Shown piece by piece: positions 38,127-50,446 of a DNA stretch of 64,000 bases. Numbering within the stretch: the first letter of the stretch is position 1; the number at the start of each line of letters is the position of its first letter. The position numbers and the translations under genes were made by a program. The notes beneath the pieces are model-generated. The model was not told where the DNA came from. It saw only the letters and a list, made by a program, of their open reading frames with translations, and ran no database searches. The DNA is from Planctomycetaceae bacterium (GTDB taxonomy: Bacteria; Planctomycetota; Planctomycetia; Pirellulales; Pirellulaceae): assembly GCA_002709045.1 (NCBI GenBank), contig PAPJ01000029.1:1057-65056 (forward strand), written 5' to 3'.

Positions 38127-39563
38127 TTAATTGCGATTGAGGCAATCGAAAGTTTGAACTATTTGTTCATCCTGAGCGGCAAAAACGCTTCGCAGATCCA
38201 GACGAAATTCATCCTGTTTAATTCTTCCCAGAATAGCGGTGTCCGCGGTCCTAAGGGCCTCTGATAATCCGTCATGTGATAGTTTCTTGTGCTTAACTGA
38301 AATCGTCCATGTTTTGATTTCCTGCGTTGGTACACTCCCTCCACCAAAATAGGTCACATCTTCGGCCGTTGCTGCATGAAAATCCGATAACTGATTTAAT
38401 CTGGCGGCCAAAACTTCTGCTCGCTTATGTAGATTGTCTAAAGGTTCACTAAGTAACTGGAGAACCGGAATTCGTTCGGTTGGATTTGACGAAAGGTACA
38501 GATCCAGAGTGGCGTTGAGTGCTGCCAGAATGGTTTTGTCCAGTCGTAGAGCGCGCATCATGGGGTGTCTGCTGATTTTGCTGACAGCCTCACGGTTACC
38601 AATAATGATTCCACATTGTGGACCACCCAATAGCTTGTCCCCGCTAAACAATACGATGTCTGCCCCTGCTTTCAGGCTTTGAGCAGCCAAAGGTTCGTCT
38701 TTGATTCCAAGTTTCGCAAAGTCGTAAAGGGCTCCTGAACCAATATCATCGACGACGCTGACATGATCGTGTCTGGATGCTACTTTGACCAGTTCTTCAA
38801 TCGGCGTTGCCTGGCTGAAACCGGTAATCTGGTAGTTGCTGCAGTGAACTTTCATTAGGACGGCAGTTTGCTCACTGATGGCATTTTCATAGTCGGCGGC
38901 ACGTGTTTTGTTTGTTGTTCCAACTTCACAAAGCGTGGCCTGACTCATTTTCATAACATCAGGCATGCGAAAACTACCGCCGATTTCCACCAGTTCCCCA
39001 CGTGAAACGACAGTTTCTTTACCACCCGAGAGAGCTGCCAGGGTAAGCATCGTAGCACCAGCATTGTTGTTAACTACTGCGGCGGCGGAGCCTCCAAAGA
39101 GTGTCAGTAGTTTTTGCTCAACGGCTTCAACCCGTTCGGATCTTTTGCCTGTATTCAAATTGATTTCCAGACTGGAATACCCCTGACCTGTTTCAACCAT
39201 TGCCTGGACCGCTTCGGTGGCCAGCGGTGCCCGCCCAAGCCCCGTGTGCAGAATAATGCCGGTGGCATTAATGCAGTACTGCAACGATGTACCGTAAACT
39301 AATTTAACCTTTTCAGCGATTATCTGAATCAGGTGATTCTGATTAACATCATGCGTGTTGTGAGCAAGGATGTTGCTACGCAACTGTTCAATTGCGGCGC
39401 GAGTTGCCTCGACAACGACACGATTATGTGTCGCCGCGAGCAGATCTTTAATTGCCGGAGTATCCAGCAATTCGCTGACAGACGGGATGTTTCGTAATAG
39501 ATCATTCATGACTTTTGGGGATTTAGATTCCTTTATTTTCAATCCCATGGACGGATAGGACAA
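38127..39563 (-). CDS. selA: L-seryl-tRNA(Sec) selenium transferase
   Basis: 478 aa. Motifs are GSFRMPDVM, EVGTTNKTR and the PLP-lysine block FSGDKLLGGPQCGIIIG, which compares closely with E. coli SelA. Confidence 0.92.
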   Translation of the reverse strand: MSYPSMGLKIKESKSPKVMNDLLRNIPSVSELLDTPAIKDLLAATHNRVVVEATRAAIEQLRSNILAHNTHDVNQNHLIQIIAEKVKLVYGTSLQYCINATGIILHTGLGRAPLATEAVQAMVETGQGYSSLEINLNTGKRSERVEAVEQKLLTLFGGSAAAVVNNNAGATMLTLAALSGGKETVVSRGELVEIGGSFRMPDVMKMSQATLCEVGTTNKTRAADYENAISEQTAVLMKVHCSNYQITGFSQATPIEELVKVASRHDHVSVVDDIGSGALYDFAKLGIKDEPLAAQSLKAGADIVLFSGDKLLGGPQCGIIIGNREAVSKISRHPMMRALRLDKTILAALNATLDLYLSSNPTERIPVLQLLSEPLDNLHKRAEVLAARLNQLSDFHAATAEDVTYFGGGSVPTQEIKTWTISVKHKKLSHDGLSEALRTADTAILGRIKQDEFRLDLRSVFAAQDEQIVQTFDCLNRN

Positions 39564-39569
39564 GGGGAT

Positions 39570-41537
39570 TCATGAGCCAAGGAATCGGAGATCGCCTTTT
39601 CGGACGGTAAAACCGTTACGATCCAAATATTCGCACAACGGCACAGCGTATTTCCTGGTGGTGCCTAAGACATCACGTATTTCGGCCATTGTTTTACCAT
39701 TTCCGTCAGCCATCAATGAACTAATTTTTTTCTGCACATCGTCGACTGTTTGCATAGATAAATAGAGTTGGTCAGAGATTTTCCTGATCGTGCCGCCTGA
39801 CTCTGCAATCTTCAGCAATTGCACGACGGCATCGGCCTGTTTATCTGCTTGATGCTGAAGCTCTTTGACGAAGGGGACCTCTAGCCCGTTCTGCTTCAGT
39901 ATTCTCTGCAGTTGTTCGAGGAGTTTGGCTTCATTCTTGGTTAATTTAGGGCCTCGTTCTTTTAACCCTAGACGTCCCATCGAGACCTGAATTATCCCCT
40001 CTTTTTGTAATAGAGAAAAGACTCTGTTTAGTATCGCGTCAACACCTAGAAACCGCAGGCGTTCGCGTACCGGAGCGATATCGAAATTGACATTTAACGG
40101 ATTTTCGTCATGCAGCCTGTTTAGAATTCGTGTGACATGCGTACCGGCGGCGGCTAGTGTCCGGGCATGGATCAATTGCGAAACGGAATTACTGAGTTCG
40201 ACCTCTAGTATATTCTCTTGCTTGATGAGCTCTTGAATGTAGCTGTCAGGATCGTCAATACCTGTCATGCGTGTCAAATCTGTATGAGAAGGATTTTTAA
40301 AACCACGTACTCCGATGGCCGATTGGATTCTTGTCCGATCGTCATTCCCATTGATTAGTCCCCGTACAAATTCCAGTTGCAGGCTATCCTGAAAACCGAT
40401 TTTATGAGCACAAGGATCCAGAATTCTTCCGCCCGCAATTGTGATAGCCGGAGATTCCATGCGAAGTACAAACGGTTGATTCCAGCAACAGACGACGGGG
40501 GAATCGGTGCTAAGTTGGGCAATCCCCTGCTCACCCGGAAAAAGTTCATCCTGTTCAAGTAGCTTGAGTGATGCAACGTGGTTAGCTGTGCCAAGATGCA
40601 ATCTGACAGACATATGGTTTGTTAGTGGAAAACGTGAGTTGGGAGCTACGGTAATGTTGACCGTCAGCATTTTGCTGGGCACCAGAAATCCGGCAGTTGC
40701 CAGTTCCATCCCTTTTCGGGTTTGATCGGGATGAATGCCAGCCAGATTAATTGCAGCCCGCTCACCTCGCATCACTGTATTCACTGACCGATCGTGATTT
40801 TGCAGGCTTCTGACGCGTACCTCGTGTTTGCCTGGCTCAAGCATAACGTGTTGATCAATACTTAGCTGGCCACTTGTCACACTGCCCGTGATAACAGTTC
40901 CGTGGCCATCTACCGAAAAACAACGATCGATGGCCAGTCTGAACGGGGCATCCTGGAGGTCAGGCAATACATGACGAATCGACTCACCCTGTCGGCAAAT
41001 AGCCTCTTTCAGCTCTTCAATCCCCTGCCCGGTTTCAGAACTGGTATGGATGCATGGAGCATTTTCAAAGAATGTACCGACACAGACTTCTCGGATCTCT
41101 GCTTCCACGAGTTCGGTGAGTTCCGAATCGACTAAATCACATTTAGTGATCGCAATAATACCTGCCTGAACATCCAGATATCTCAGGATATCCAGGTGTT
41201 CTCGGGTTTGAGGCTTTACCGAGTCATCAGCAGCAACGACTAGCATGACAAGATCCATGCCGGTTGCACCTGAGAGCATGTTACGTACAAATCGTTCATG
41301 ACCTGGAACGTCGACAATCCCCAGTTTAAAGGGAGGGAGAATGAGCTGGGCGAAACCGGGCTCAATGGTAATACCTCGTTTCTTTTCCTCCGGAAGTCGA
41401 TCGGTATTAATTCCTGTCAGTCTTCGTATCAGGGCAGTTTTCCCATGGTCGATATGACCGGCTGTACCAAGGATGAGAGGGGTTAGCTGAGATGTGTTGC
41501 TACCGGTGGAATCGTTGTCATTGGAGCCGCTGTTCAT
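39570..41537 (-). CDS. selB: selenocysteine-specific translation elongation factor
   Basis: 655 aa. The GTPase has G1 (GTAGHIDHGKTAL), G3 (DVPGHERF) and G4 (TKCD). Beta-barrel domains follow, then a long C-terminal winged-helix region typical of SelB. It sits 6 nt upstream of selA. Confidence 0.92.
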   Translation of the reverse strand: MNSGSNDNDSTGSNTSQLTPLILGTAGHIDHGKTALIRRLTGINTDRLPEEKKRGITIEPGFAQLILPPFKLGIVDVPGHERFVRNMLSGATGMDLVMLVVAADDSVKPQTREHLDILRYLDVQAGIIAITKCDLVDSELTELVEAEIREVCVGTFFENAPCIHTSSETGQGIEELKEAICRQGESIRHVLPDLQDAPFRLAIDRCFSVDGHGTVITGSVTSGQLSIDQHVMLEPGKHEVRVRSLQNHDRSVNTVMRGERAAINLAGIHPDQTRKGMELATAGFLVPSKMLTVNITVAPNSRFPLTNHMSVRLHLGTANHVASLKLLEQDELFPGEQGIAQLSTDSPVVCCWNQPFVLRMESPAITIAGGRILDPCAHKIGFQDSLQLEFVRGLINGNDDRTRIQSAIGVRGFKNPSHTDLTRMTGIDDPDSYIQELIKQENILEVELSNSVSQLIHARTLAAAGTHVTRILNRLHDENPLNVNFDIAPVRERLRFLGVDAILNRVFSLLQKEGIIQVSMGRLGLKERGPKLTKNEAKLLEQLQRILKQNGLEVPFVKELQHQADKQADAVVQLLKIAESGGTIRKISDQLYLSMQTVDDVQKKISSLMADGNGKTMAEIRDVLGTTRKYAVPLCEYLDRNGFTVRKGDLRFLGS

Positions 41538-43603: not shown

Positions 43604-44170
43604 ATGCAAGCTAAAGAAATTAAGAACGGATCTGTGCTGAATTATGATGAGGCTCCCACCATCATTGAGAGTATCAGCGTTCAGAGTCCGTCAGCCAGGG
43701 GTGCCGCGACGCTTTATAAATTTCGTGGGCGCAATCTGATTACCCGACAAAAAGTCGATATCACGCTTAAAGGTGGCGAGTCATTAGATGAGGCGGATTT
43801 TGAACGCCGAGCCGTGACGTTAATGTATTCGGATGGTACAGACATCTATTTTCTGGATTCAGCGGACTATAATCAGTATTCAATTGCCGCAGAAGATGTT
43901 ACTCAGCAGATGCAGTATGTGACAGAAGGCCTGGAAGGTATTCTTGCGTTGATCTACAACGATCAGTGTATTGGTATTCAAATTCCACACACCGTCGAAA
44001 TGAAGATCACTCAGACTGATCCCGGCGCAAAAGGCAATTCAGCGACAGGTCGTACTAAACCGGCGATACTTGCATCGGGTGTGCAGATTCAAGTCCCTGA
44101 ATATCTGAAAGAAGGCGAAATTGTGAAAGTGGACACCCGTACGAATGAATTTCTGGGACGTGCTAACTAA
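43604..44170 (+). CDS. efp: elongation factor P, Arg-type loop
   Basis: 188 aa with a three-domain EF-P layout. The modified-loop region reads QSPSARGAATLYKF, compared with E. coli KPGKGQAFARVK. Arg occupies the position of Lys34. Confidence 0.85.
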   Translation: MQAKEIKNGSVLNYDEAPTIIESISVQSPSARGAATLYKFRGRNLITRQKVDITLKGGESLDEADFERRAVTLMYSDGTDIYFLDSADYNQYSIAAEDVTQQMQYVTEGLEGILALIYNDQCIGIQIPHTVEMKITQTDPGAKGNSATGRTKPAILASGVQIQVPEYLKEGEIVKVDTRTNEFLGRAN

Positions 44171-44270: not shown

Positions 44271-44294
44271 GGATAAAAAGCTGTATTTTTATCC
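44271..44294. terminator. AT-rich hairpin between convergent efp and SelW-like gene
   Basis: Arms ggataaaaa (44271-44279) and tttttatcc (44286-44294) form a 9-bp stem with a 6-nt loop. It overlaps the SelW-like terminal stop. The stem is weak (7 A-T pairs). Confidence 0.3.
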
Positions 44295-44528
44295 ATGAAT
44301 TCGTCGACCAACCTGACTGATCACATGATCTTCTTCGGGGAAAACGCCTGTTTCCAATTTGGAGTAAATCAACTCACCGCCTACGTTCAATTAGAAACAG
44401 TCTCCCGTGCTTGGCTTAAGTTCGAATCCACTAATTTGACGTTTGTACTGAACGAGCAATTTTGCTGCCAGATTGACAGCTTTTGGTTCGTAATTTCAGC
44501 TACTACAGTATCGCAAGTGTATTTTCAC
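44289..44528 (-). pseudogene. SelW-like (Rdx family) selenoprotein gene: UGA-Sec at codon 11, interrupted as sequenced by an in-frame TAA at codon 46
   Basis: Hand translation of the minus strand, from GTG 44528 with AGAGG 5 nt upstream. It reads VKIHLRYCSS-U(TGA 44498-44496)-NYEPKAVNLAAKLLVQYKRQISGFELKPSTGDCF-*(TAA 44393-44391)-LNVGGELIYSKLETGVFPEEDHVISQVGRRIHG-*(44291-44289). It has a CxxU redox motif and a C-terminal G-x-x-F-(E)-x-x-V-x-G-E-L-I-Y-S-K…G-x-F-P pattern. The ORF track shows only an antisense shadow ORF here. Confidence 0.7.
44464..44480 (-). promoter_or_regulatory. candidate bacterial SECIS hairpin downstream of the SelW-like UGA
   Basis: Minus-strand RNA GCUGUC-AAUCU-GGCAGC has a 6-bp stem (including one G-U pair) and a 5-nt loop. 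It begins 15 nt after the UGA. It was not folded computationally. Confidence 0.35.
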
Positions 44529-44551
44529 AATAACCTCTAGGGTTAAAAGAA

Positions 44552-44689
44552 TTAGGACTTCTTAGAAGTCTTCTTTTTGGAGGCTTTCTTTTTTGCACTT
44601 GCTTTGGAGGAACTCTTTTTTTTGCCGCCAAAAGCTTTATCGAAGTTTGATGCGTATCTAGGTGTCGAGCCAACTCGCAGAATTGTCAC
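44552..44689 (-). CDS. small lysine/serine-rich protein (45 aa), function unknown
   Basis: The only available start is GTG 44689, because an in-frame TAA lies 4 codons upstream; AAGGA/TAAGG lies upstream. It translates to (M)TILRVGSTPRYASNFDKAFGGKKKSSSKASAKKKASKKKTSKKS. It is below the ORF-track size cutoff. The plus-strand ORF 44577..44822 is its shadow. Confidence 0.4.
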   Translation of the reverse strand: MTILRVGSTPRYASNFDKAFGGKKKSSSKASAKKKASKKKTSKKS

Positions 44690-44818: not shown

Positions 44819-46489
44819 TTAGACTAATTTCTTGTATTTGAACCGGTGAGGCTCGTCCGGATTAATGCCCAGACGTTCGCGTCGCTGACGTTCATAGGTT
44901 TGGTAGTTCCCTTCACACCAGTGTATATAGCCGTTACCTTCGAAGGCTAAAATGTGAGTGGTAAGTCGATCCAGGAACCAGCGATCGTGGCTGGTGACAA
45001 CCACACAGCCGGCATAATTTTGTATTGCCTCTTCTAAGGCGCGTAGAGTATCCACATCAAGATCATTTGTTGGTTCGTCTAAAAGCAGGACATTAGATCC
45101 TTGCCGCAGTAGCTTAGCCAAATGGACGCGGTTTCGTTCACCACCGGATAGTGTTCCGACCTTCTTTTCCTGATCGGGACCTTTGAAATTAAACCGGGAT
45201 ACATAACCCCGCGAGTTAATCTGACGCCCGCCCATGTCGAGATGCTCGTAGCCGCCTGAGATTTCTTCATACACAGTTGCATCGGCATTGAGCTCATCAC
45301 GGTTCTGATCGACATAGCCCATTTCAACGGTTGGACCTACCCGTAATTCTCCCGAGTCGGGCCTATCTTGTCCGGTTAGCATCCGAAACAGCGTAGTCTT
45401 CCCTGCTCCGTTTGGACCAATGACTCCCACAATGCCCCCGGCAGGCAGTGAAAACGAAAGGTTGTCCATCAGGATGTTATCTCCAAATCCTTTAGAGAGA
45501 TTCTCGGCCTGAATAACTAAATCGCCGAGATGTGTTCCGGGAGGAATTTGAATTTCAAATTCGGTGATTTGATCTTCAAACTGTTGTGCCACCATGCGGT
45601 CATAGGCAGCCAGTCGTGCCTTGCTTTTACTTTGTCGTGCTTTGGGAGACGAACGAACCCATTCTAACTCACGGGCAATTGTTTTCTGTCTTGCCAGAGA
45701 TTGTTTTTCTTCTACTTTAAGGCGTGATTCTTTCTGTTCGAGCCAGGCCGTGTAGTTGCCTTCAAATGGATATCCTTTTCCCCGATCCAGTTCAAGGATC
45801 CATTGCGCGACGTTGTCCAGAAAATACCGGTCGTGAGTGACAGCGACGATTGTACCTGGGTATTCAGCCAGATGGCGTTCCAGCCAGGCTACTGAATCAG
45901 CATCAAGATGATTGGTTGGCTCGTCCAGTAGTAATAGATCGGGACGTTCCAGTAGTAATTTACAGAGAGCTACCCGGCGACGTTCACCACCTGAAAGCGT
46001 GGTCACATCAGCGTCACGAGGAGGAAGATTCATGACATCAAAAGCCACCTCGATTTCTCGATCAAGATTCCATGTGTTGGACGTTTCAATTTCGTCCTGA
46101 AGGCGGGCCATTTCGTCACAGAGCTTCATCATCTGATCATCTTCCATCGGCTCGGCTAATTCGACACTGATCTGATTGTAACGATCGAGCATGGCTCGTC
46201 GGGAGGTAACTGCTTCTTCCACATTTCCCCAGACATCTTTTTCCGGATTGAGTTGAGGTTCCTGAGGTAGGTATCCGCAGGTGAAACCATCCGTTAGCTG
46301 TGCCGCCCCGTCAAATTCATGGTCTTCTCCAGCCATAATTCTCAGGAGGGTACTTTTGCCTGTACCGTTACGCCCCAAAACACCGATTTTTGCGCCCGGA
46401 TAAAAGGAGAGATAGATTTCTTTGAGTACTTCACGGGGACCATGTTTTTTAGTGAGGTCGGTGATTGTATAGATGTATTGTTTGCTCAT
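44819..46489 (-). CDS. ettA: energy-dependent translational throttle protein EttA (ABC-F ATPase)
   Basis: 556 aa with two ABC cassettes. Walker A motifs are GRNGTGKST and GPNGAGKTT, and signature motifs are LSGGERRR and LSGGERNR. There is an inter-domain linker and no TM domain. Confidence 0.9.
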   Translation of the reverse strand: MSKQYIYTITDLTKKHGPREVLKEIYLSFYPGAKIGVLGRNGTGKSTLLRIMAGEDHEFDGAAQLTDGFTCGYLPQEPQLNPEKDVWGNVEEAVTSRRAMLDRYNQISVELAEPMEDDQMMKLCDEMARLQDEIETSNTWNLDREIEVAFDVMNLPPRDADVTTLSGGERRRVALCKLLLERPDLLLLDEPTNHLDADSVAWLERHLAEYPGTIVAVTHDRYFLDNVAQWILELDRGKGYPFEGNYTAWLEQKESRLKVEEKQSLARQKTIARELEWVRSSPKARQSKSKARLAAYDRMVAQQFEDQITEFEIQIPPGTHLGDLVIQAENLSKGFGDNILMDNLSFSLPAGGIVGVIGPNGAGKTTLFRMLTGQDRPDSGELRVGPTVEMGYVDQNRDELNADATVYEEISGGYEHLDMGGRQINSRGYVSRFNFKGPDQEKKVGTLSGGERNRVHLAKLLRQGSNVLLLDEPTNDLDVDTLRALEEAIQNYAGCVVVTSHDRWFLDRLTTHILAFEGNGYIHWCEGNYQTYERQRRERLGINPDEPHRFKYKKLV

Positions 46490-49870: not shown

Positions 49871-50254
49871 CTAATGATTTATAGATAGAGGCGGGTCACT
49901 ATTTGTCGAAGACTGTTCGTCAGATTGATTTTCAGCCGATTTGCGAAGAATATGCTGTTTCCAGAGTACGACCCAGGAGACGATAAAAATCAGACCAAAG
50001 AGGATATAGAGTGGTGTCAGTGTAACAATCTGCTCATTCGTAAATTCATCCGTGGTTCGTGTCGGCATGTCTGTTGCGCTGTTACCAGTATCATCTTCGT
50101 AGGTTTGCATCCGGGCTCGAAAGTTTATTTCTTCCAGATCCTGCCGGGTATCAAATTTACCCTGCAGGATGACCAGACTGATCAATCCAGCAGTACTGAA
50201 CAGATAAATCCAGAACCAAACCGACTCAGATAATTTTTTGCGTTGCTGCTGCAC
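49871..50254 (-). CDS. small two-TM membrane hypothetical protein
   Basis: The ORF track gives 49871..50407, but codons 1-33 of that ORF are the tRNA-Sec gene. GTG 50254 (VQQQRKKLSESVWFWIYLF…) was chosen as the first plausible start downstream of the tRNA. The start remains uncertain. Confidence 0.5.
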   Translation of the reverse strand: MQQQRKKLSESVWFWIYLFSTAGLISLVILQGKFDTRQDLEEINFRARMQTYEDDTGNSATDMPTRTTDEFTNEQIVTLTPLYILFGLIFIVSWVVLWKQHILRKSAENQSDEQSSTNSDPPLSINH

Positions 50255-50308
50255 TTTCGGTTCTTTCAGTACCGCTGTTTTGTGGCTTCCGCGAGGTATG
50301 ACGAAAAG

Positions 50309-50405
50309 CGGAAGTGTATGGGAATCGAACCCACCAACCGGACGGTTCACGCCCGGTTCAGCGGTTTTGAAGACCGTGGCCATCACCAGATGTGCTTCCA
50401 CTTCC
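50309..50405 (-). tRNA. selC: tRNA-Sec (anticodon UCA)
   Basis: Hand fold of the minus strand: GGAAGTGGAAGCACATCTGGTGATGGCCACGGTCTTCAAAACCGCTGAACCGGGCGTGAACCGTCCGGTTGGTGGGTTCGATTCCCATACACTTCCG. The acceptor GGAAGUG pairs with CACUUCC, with discriminator G. The D arm has about 6 bp with one bulge and a 4-nt loop UGGU. The anticodon loop is CU-UCA-AA (anticodon 50370-50368). The variable arm has 9 bp (AACCGGGCG/CGUCCGGUU). The T loop is UUCGAUU. The 5' GGAAG and 3' CUUCCG ends resemble E. coli selC. CCA is not encoded. Confidence 0.85.
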
Positions 50406-50446
50406 AAATGAAATTAAATTCATTACGAATGATTATGGCTTAAAAA

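Follow-up and report, generated by a model that had tools for sequence, protein, structure and literature searches.

A SelW-like selenoprotein locus in a marine planctomycete, probably a recent pseudogene beside intact selenium machinery

SelW-like selenoproteins (PF10262) are known from bacteria, with examples in an earlier survey (PMC1794560). The loss of selenoproteins in sister lineages, SelW-like proteins included, is a documented bacterial pattern (PMC1794560, Table 4). For the SECIS element, the published bSECIS model describes a loop of 3-9 nt, a stem of at least 4 bp and an MFE of -7.5 kcal/mol or lower (PMC13188914, Fig. 2), with a G within the first two loop positions and a distance of 16-37 nt from the UGA (PMC13188914). 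Some bacterial SECIS elements depart from this consensus (PMC13188914).

The locus described here lies within a stretch of 64,000 nucleotides, referred to as the window. Like the bacterial SelW-like selenoproteins, it has an Rdx domain, an N-terminal CxxU with UGA and a length of about 79 aa; with the planctomycete members it also shares a SECIS hairpin 22 nt after the UGA and an orthologous neighbourhood. In contrast to these proteins, its frame is broken by a TAA at a Glu position, a GG has become GD and the SECIS loop has no G. The locus is very probably a recently pseudogenised ortholog of this known family.

The locus, its family and its neighbourhood

The gene is read on the minus strand and comprises the following elements:

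44289..44528, minus strand: SelW-like/Rdx selenoprotein coding remnant, 79 codons plus a terminal TAA (translation; Pfam PF10262)
44528-44526, minus strand: GTG start codon of the remnant (direct sequence reading)
44534..44538, minus strand: Shine-Dalgarno-like AGAGG with a 5-nt spacer to the GTG start (direct sequence reading)
44496..44498, minus strand: TGA at the Sec position of the CxxU motif, C8-S-S-U11 (homolog codon alignment)

The translation of 44528-44289 is VKIHLRYCSS*NYEPKAVNLAAKLLVQYKRQISGFELKPSTGDCF*LNVGGELIYSKLETGVFPEEDHVISQVGRRIHG*, identical to the one given in the preliminary description of this DNA, and its in-frame stops are the TGA at 44498-44496, the TAA at 44393-44391 and the terminal TAA at 44291-44289. 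The AGAGG motif, spacer and GTG start that had been pointed out are present as described, and GAGG-like motifs occur at similar spacing in some SelW orthologs (e.g. L011, L014, L015). It had also been stated that the ORF track holds only an antisense 81-aa ORF at this place. That ORF is listed (44295-44540, plus strand) and has no Pfam match, but it is not the only one, as a 33-aa remnant starting at a TTG is listed on the minus strand (44289-44390).

Membership of the Rdx/SelW family, proposed from the letters alone, is borne out by a profile search in which U was entered as C and the TAA as E. The stitched product matches Pfam Rdx PF10262 with E=2.7e-17 and 63.1 bits (cutoff 22.6) over profile positions 1-72 of 74, far beyond chance. 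Residues 1-45 alone cover profile positions 1-44 (31.8 bits), and the 33-aa tail alone covers 48-72 (19.8 bits, under the cutoff by itself). The two halves thus align collinearly, and the homology crosses the TAA without an indel. The N-terminal CxxU/CxxC signature of the family is found as C8-S-S-[TGA]11. The frame over the thioredoxin-like domain is interrupted, beyond the UGA for Sec, by the TAA at codon 46, and the G-G-x-F-E motif of the planctomycete subfamily reads G-D-C-F-stop. No second Rdx copy was found within the 64-kb window.

Scanning GTDB species genomes and JGI metagenomes yielded 160 homolog loci, and almost all of them belong to MAGs of Pirellulaceae, Planctomycetaceae or other Planctomycetota; the window's own sequence was not among them. 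They were reduced to 134 distinct coding sequences, 131 distinct proteins and 124 distinct Sec-encoding homologs. A protein search gave full-length relatives of 77-88 aa with 62-82% identity, one of them named 'selenoprotein [Planctomycetaceae bacterium]' by NCBI, and the remnant is 75-83% identical in amino acids to its orthologs in related MAGs and metagenome contigs. When the clade consensus is used, the PDB relatives 3DEX, 2FA8, 2OBK, 2P0G and 2OKA, mouse SelW (2NPB) and MIEN1 (2LJK) are found. The gene belongs to a subfamily of the known bacterial SelW-like selenoproteins that is widespread and well conserved in planctomycetes. Reading the TGA as Sec within a CxxU, as had been proposed, agrees with 156 of the 160 loci; three have TGC, and one is unaligned at this codon. 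Internal stops within the gene body occur in none of the 160 loci.

Several public ENA predictions (P0001-P0003, P0006, P0008-P0011) carry Trp (CSSW) at the Sec position. This is taken to mean that the gene caller translated TGA to Trp, a code-4-type call; if so, it is a database artefact that disguises selenoproteins as apparent Trp proteins. Among close relatives of the same marine clade, TGC (Cys) stands in place of TGA in L091 (2501-2734), L011 (3001-3234) and L092 (176-409), and the proteins P0004, P0005 and P0007 have Cys there as well. The SECIS-like hairpin is still intact in the Cys-type L091 and is degrading in L011. These loci look like recent Sec-to-Cys conversions beside the outright loss in the window, and since close relatives (L091, L011/L092) have replaced Sec with Cys, the SelW-like gene is evolutionarily labile in this clade.

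The genes on either side of the remnant are as follows:

44819..46489, minus strand: ABC-F ATPase gene (two Pfam ABC_tran domains and ABC_tran_Xtn), directly upstream on the same strand; synteny anchor
44552..44689, minus strand: 45-aa Lys-rich small ORF, lying after ABC-F and 23 nt ahead of the SelW start
43604..44170, plus strand: EF-P gene, convergent with the SelW-like remnant; synteny anchor

Past EF-P lie a gene for a 161-aa hypothetical protein and the P5C reductase gene. The same order of ABC-F, small ORF, SelW and convergent EF-P recurs in the closest relatives (L011-L015, L091-L095, L171), whose ABC-F, EF-P and 161-aa proteins are 91-93%, 87-93% and 77-88% identical to those of the window, respectively, and ABC-F also lies upstream of SelW in many more distant homolog loci. 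Given this conserved gene order, the window copy is the ortholog and not a stray fragment.

The small ORF begins VTILRVGSTPRYASNFDKAFGGKKK, and its N-terminus (VTILRVGSTP.YASNFDKAFG) is conserved in the orthologous loci, where the N-terminal 20-30 residues are 85-96% conserved and the ORF always lies 18-81 nt upstream of SelW. It matches no Pfam family and probably encodes a genuine small basic protein, unannotated so far and co-transcribed with SelW. An AT-rich inverted repeat (GGATAAAAA...TTTTTATCC, 44271-44294) overlaps the SelW stop in the space that separates SelW from the convergent EF-P gene. It could be a bidirectional terminator, and was not called in a consensus scan because it has too few G-C pairs.

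The preliminary description had also mentioned selA, selB and selC nearby, and all three are located and intact by Pfam, ARAGORN and Rfam:

38127..39563, minus strand: selA (Pfam SelA, E=3.3e-132)
39570..41537, minus strand: selB (Pfam GTP_EFTU, Beta-barrel_SelB and SelB-wing_3)
50308..50405, minus strand: tRNA-Sec gene (selC), anticodon TCA (ARAGORN; Rfam RF01852, 66.7 bits)

The intact state of these genes indicates that the organism still makes other selenoproteins. The adjacent selA and selB (38127-41537, minus strand) probably form an operon. The tRNA-Sec gene lies about 9 kb from them, with the SelW-like remnant in between, and together they make up a loose selenium-utilisation neighbourhood. 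A 178-aa TTG-initiated ORF (49871-50407, minus strand) overlaps the tRNA-Sec gene (50308-50405) at the 5' end of the ORF; either its start is mis-extended or the ORF is spurious, probably.

Three changes at invariant sites and the SECIS hairpin

Of the first 231 nucleotide columns, 34 do not vary across the 134 distinct homolog coding sequences, and the window departs from them at three. All three changes run from GC to AT:

44473 (CDS nt 56), minus strand: G>A, AGU to AAU, Ser19Asn, with loss of the G of the SECIS apical loop
44400..44402 (changed base 44401, CDS nt 128), minus strand: G>A, GGN to GAC, Gly43Asp in G-G-x-F-E
44391..44393 (changed base 44393, CDS nt 136), minus strand: G>T, GAA to TAA, Glu46 to stop, followed by T (TAAT)

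Such departures are rare in the family. When each homolog is left out in turn, 129 of the 134 have no private change at an invariant nucleotide column, four have one and a single sequence has two, against three in the window. At the protein level the window has two private changes at invariant columns, and 126 of 127 homologs have none. Gly43 and Glu46 are invariant in all 131 distinct homolog proteins, among which the Asn19, Asp43 and Asn48 of the window are never seen. The claim that the TAA falls on a family Glu was checked by comparison of ortholog codons, which are GAA in 94 loci and GAG in 66 (160/160); the single G>T proposed to explain it is the change at 44393 over this invariant residue. 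The other two lesions, at 44473 and 44401, were absent from the preliminary description, and it is these that tip the balance towards a dead gene.

The change at 44473 falls in a bacterial SECIS hairpin, recognised by its fold and by its conservation among homologs:

44464..44480, minus strand: bacterial SECIS hairpin GCUGUCA-AUC-UGGCAGC

In the window the hairpin has an intact 7-bp stem, a 3-nt loop and a folding energy of -9.3 kcal/mol, and its loop (44473-44471) starts 22 nt past the UGA (44498-44496). The homologs share the form GC[C/U]GUCA-GU[U/C]-UG[G/A]C[G/A]GC, the core of which is conserved in the 124 distinct Sec-encoding sequences. RNAalifold gave an uninformative consensus over a 72-nt region, so the hairpin was examined by explicit pair counts. 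Pair 24:36 covaries (C-G 95, U-A 22, U-G 3, G-C 2) and is paired in 122 of 124 sequences, whereas shuffles average 101 and never exceed 106; both of its bases are synonymous third-codon positions. Pair 26:34 alternates between U-G, U-A and C-G and is paired in every homolog. The first loop base is G in 124/124 Sec-encoding homologs and the second is U in 121/124. Moreover, the Ser19 codon is AGU in 128 of the 134 distinct sequences and never UCN, which indicates a constraint at the RNA level.

The homolog hairpin fits the bSECIS model. That of the window agrees with it in loop size, stem, MFE and the 22-nt spacing from the UGA, but its loop, AUC (or AAUCU with the closing A-U pair open), lacks the G that the model places there, where homologs have G-U-Y. 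Rfam found no significant match at the SelW locus to a bacterial SECIS or any other family, only chance-level matches (E 0.5-5). Judged from the bSECIS model and the invariance of the loop G in the family, its loss would impair SelB binding and hence Sec insertion at the UGA. The loop G>A need not be lethal, since bacterial SECIS elements outside the consensus model are known.

The TAA allele, its age and the competing readings

An assembly or sequencing error in the source MAG, with GAA in the true genome, was one of the causes suggested for the TAA, which is a single base away from the ancestral codon. Population data bearing on this come solely from an exact-protein look-up of the neighbouring EF-P, which gathered independent contigs from ENA TARA Oceans scaffolds, the JGI metagenome Ga0211713 and Logan assemblies of several runs. 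Ten independently assembled contigs match the window at 99.87-100% identity along 1.7-6.6 kb, and all ten show zero mismatches over 44289-44560 (272 nt), the TAA and TGA included. The same TAA in ten contigs from different samples and pipelines rules out such an error, the chance of which is practically negligible; the mutations are real. In this population of uncultured marine Planctomycetaceae/Pirellulaceae-like bacteria, which was sampled by TARA Oceans and is geographically widespread, the TAA allele is at or near fixation. The neighbouring 161-aa protein is a 100% match to the NCBI MAG entry CMJ76_08695 (Planctomycetaceae bacterium).

The decay appears to be young. The nearest sampled lineages have about 75-79% DNA identity to the window, with synonymous sites saturated. 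Among homologs of the 161-aa protein, no closer sister lineage is found between 89% and 100% identity; the contig of one of the nearest, whose 161-aa protein is 88% identical (P0017; locus L171), has about 75.6% DNA identity and an intact SelW gene. Pairwise dN/dS against relatives is 0.04-0.11, with saturated synonymous sites. No amino-acid acceleration was detected in comparison with six relatives (private changes in the window vs the relatives: 7 vs 14 for SelW and 14 vs 36 for ABC-F), and the SelW remnant has no indels or frameshifts. The low dN/dS, the lack of excess private changes and the absence of indels point to purifying selection over most of the private branch, with a disabling that is recent relative to that branch. 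This mostly constrained-looking sequence fits a very recent inactivation, and it also fits continued function.

Recent pseudogenisation, one of the causes offered in the preliminary description, is supported by the three private lesions at invariant sites, real in ten assemblies, and the remnant stands at the orthologous position with disabling mutations that are absent from functional relatives. The gene of which this is the orthologous copy encodes a small Rdx-fold CxxU selenoprotein and is widespread in Planctomycetota, where ABC-F and the small basic ORF flank it at one end and EF-P at the opposite end. Three single-base changes in the lineage of the window would then have disabled it: alongside the SECIS loop mutation, Gly43Asp alters the invariant GG-x-F-E motif, and the stop in place of Glu46 would cut the thioredoxin-like fold short after 45 residues. 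From sequence, each lesion would be expected to abolish function. Translation would be expected to end at the UGA after 10 residues or, in the best case, to give a fragment of 45 residues; a full-length product is presumably absent, and no functional protein would result. Counting against a pseudogene, the start codon, the RBS-like motif and the SECIS stem are intact.

Those same intact elements, together with the CxxU motif, would also suit a truncated or split product that still functions, in which the UGA is decoded as Sec and the TAA ends translation, giving a 45-residue CxxU selenopeptide. The TTG immediately after the TAA (44390-44388), from which the 33-aa ORF is listed, might re-initiate translation of a 33-residue C-terminal piece that could associate with the selenopeptide; the C-terminal third is still well conserved. 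This TTG, however, is nothing new, as codon 47 is ancestrally Leu (98 of 131 homologs have L), and none of the 160 homolog loci is split. The selenopeptide would itself depend on a SECIS that has lost its loop G, Gly43Asp harms the N-terminal piece at an invariant site, and the 45-residue fragment, spanning Rdx profile positions 1-44 of 74, would be left without part of the thioredoxin-like sheet. A working split product is thus improbable. The remaining cause that had been suggested was programmed read-through or recoding at the TAA in addition to Sec recoding, which would yield a full-length 79-residue selenoprotein. In its favour, the homology stays in frame without an indel, and the TAA is fixed in all sampled members of the population. 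However, a recoding site should be recognisable by a stop conserved in relatives and by a leaky context or downstream structure. None of the 160 homolog loci has a stop at this position, TAAT terminates 12 of the 45 long ORFs in the window, more than any other context does, and the 80 nt that start just before the TAA fold no better than shuffles (z=0.05). TAA is also the main terminator, ending 30 of the 45 long ORFs in the window, no suppressor tRNA lies within the window, and the co-occurring SECIS-loop and Gly43Asp lesions argue for lost constraint. Read-through of this kind is highly improbable and was disfavoured on these grounds.

Either of these products, read-through or split, is unlikely, and it is hardly to be expected that a 240-nt mRNA undergoes two recoding events, Sec insertion through a G-less SECIS loop and read-through or termination-reinitiation at TAA-TTG. 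Three other routes past the stop were considered and rejected. Genome-wide reassignment of TAA is contradicted by the 30 of 45 long ORFs that it ends, EF-P among them. A suppressor tRNA was not found in the window, whose only tRNA gene is tRNA-Sec. As for a frameshift bypass, the homology stays in frame 0, and a -1 frame entered at UUUC meets a stop within nine codons.

Comparison with known systems and significance

Genes with programmed read-through or dual recoding resemble this locus in having two in-frame stops inside a recognisable coding sequence. They differ from it in that the second stop of the window is unconserved, sits in the strongest local terminator context and has no downstream structure. 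Closer to it are the described cases of selenoprotein loss and Sec-to-Cys replacement (Zhang et al. 2006, PMC1794560), in which, as here, one family is lost while selA, selB and selC are kept, and the neighbouring lineages of the clade that turned Sec to Cys (L091, L011/L092) follow the same pattern. Unlike those cases, which were inferred from presence and absence between genomes, the window preserves the pseudogene stage, with the lesions still readable. As selenoprotein loss and Sec-to-Cys turnover have already been described, no concept is changed: on the favoured reading the locus is an ordinary pseudogene rather than an exotic recoding event, and a disabled new member of a known family.

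The practical value lies in annotation: at this place standard gene callers find either nothing or the antisense ORF, and the appropriate label is SelW-like selenoprotein pseudogene. The homolog set provides a well-supported SECIS for the planctomycete SelW-like subfamily, with about 124 sequences, a covarying hairpin and an invariant GU loop, against which the window constitutes a natural SECIS loop mutant that is testable by a reporter. Biologically, the locus is a clean natural case of a selenoprotein in the course of being lost while selA, selB and tRNA-Sec are retained.
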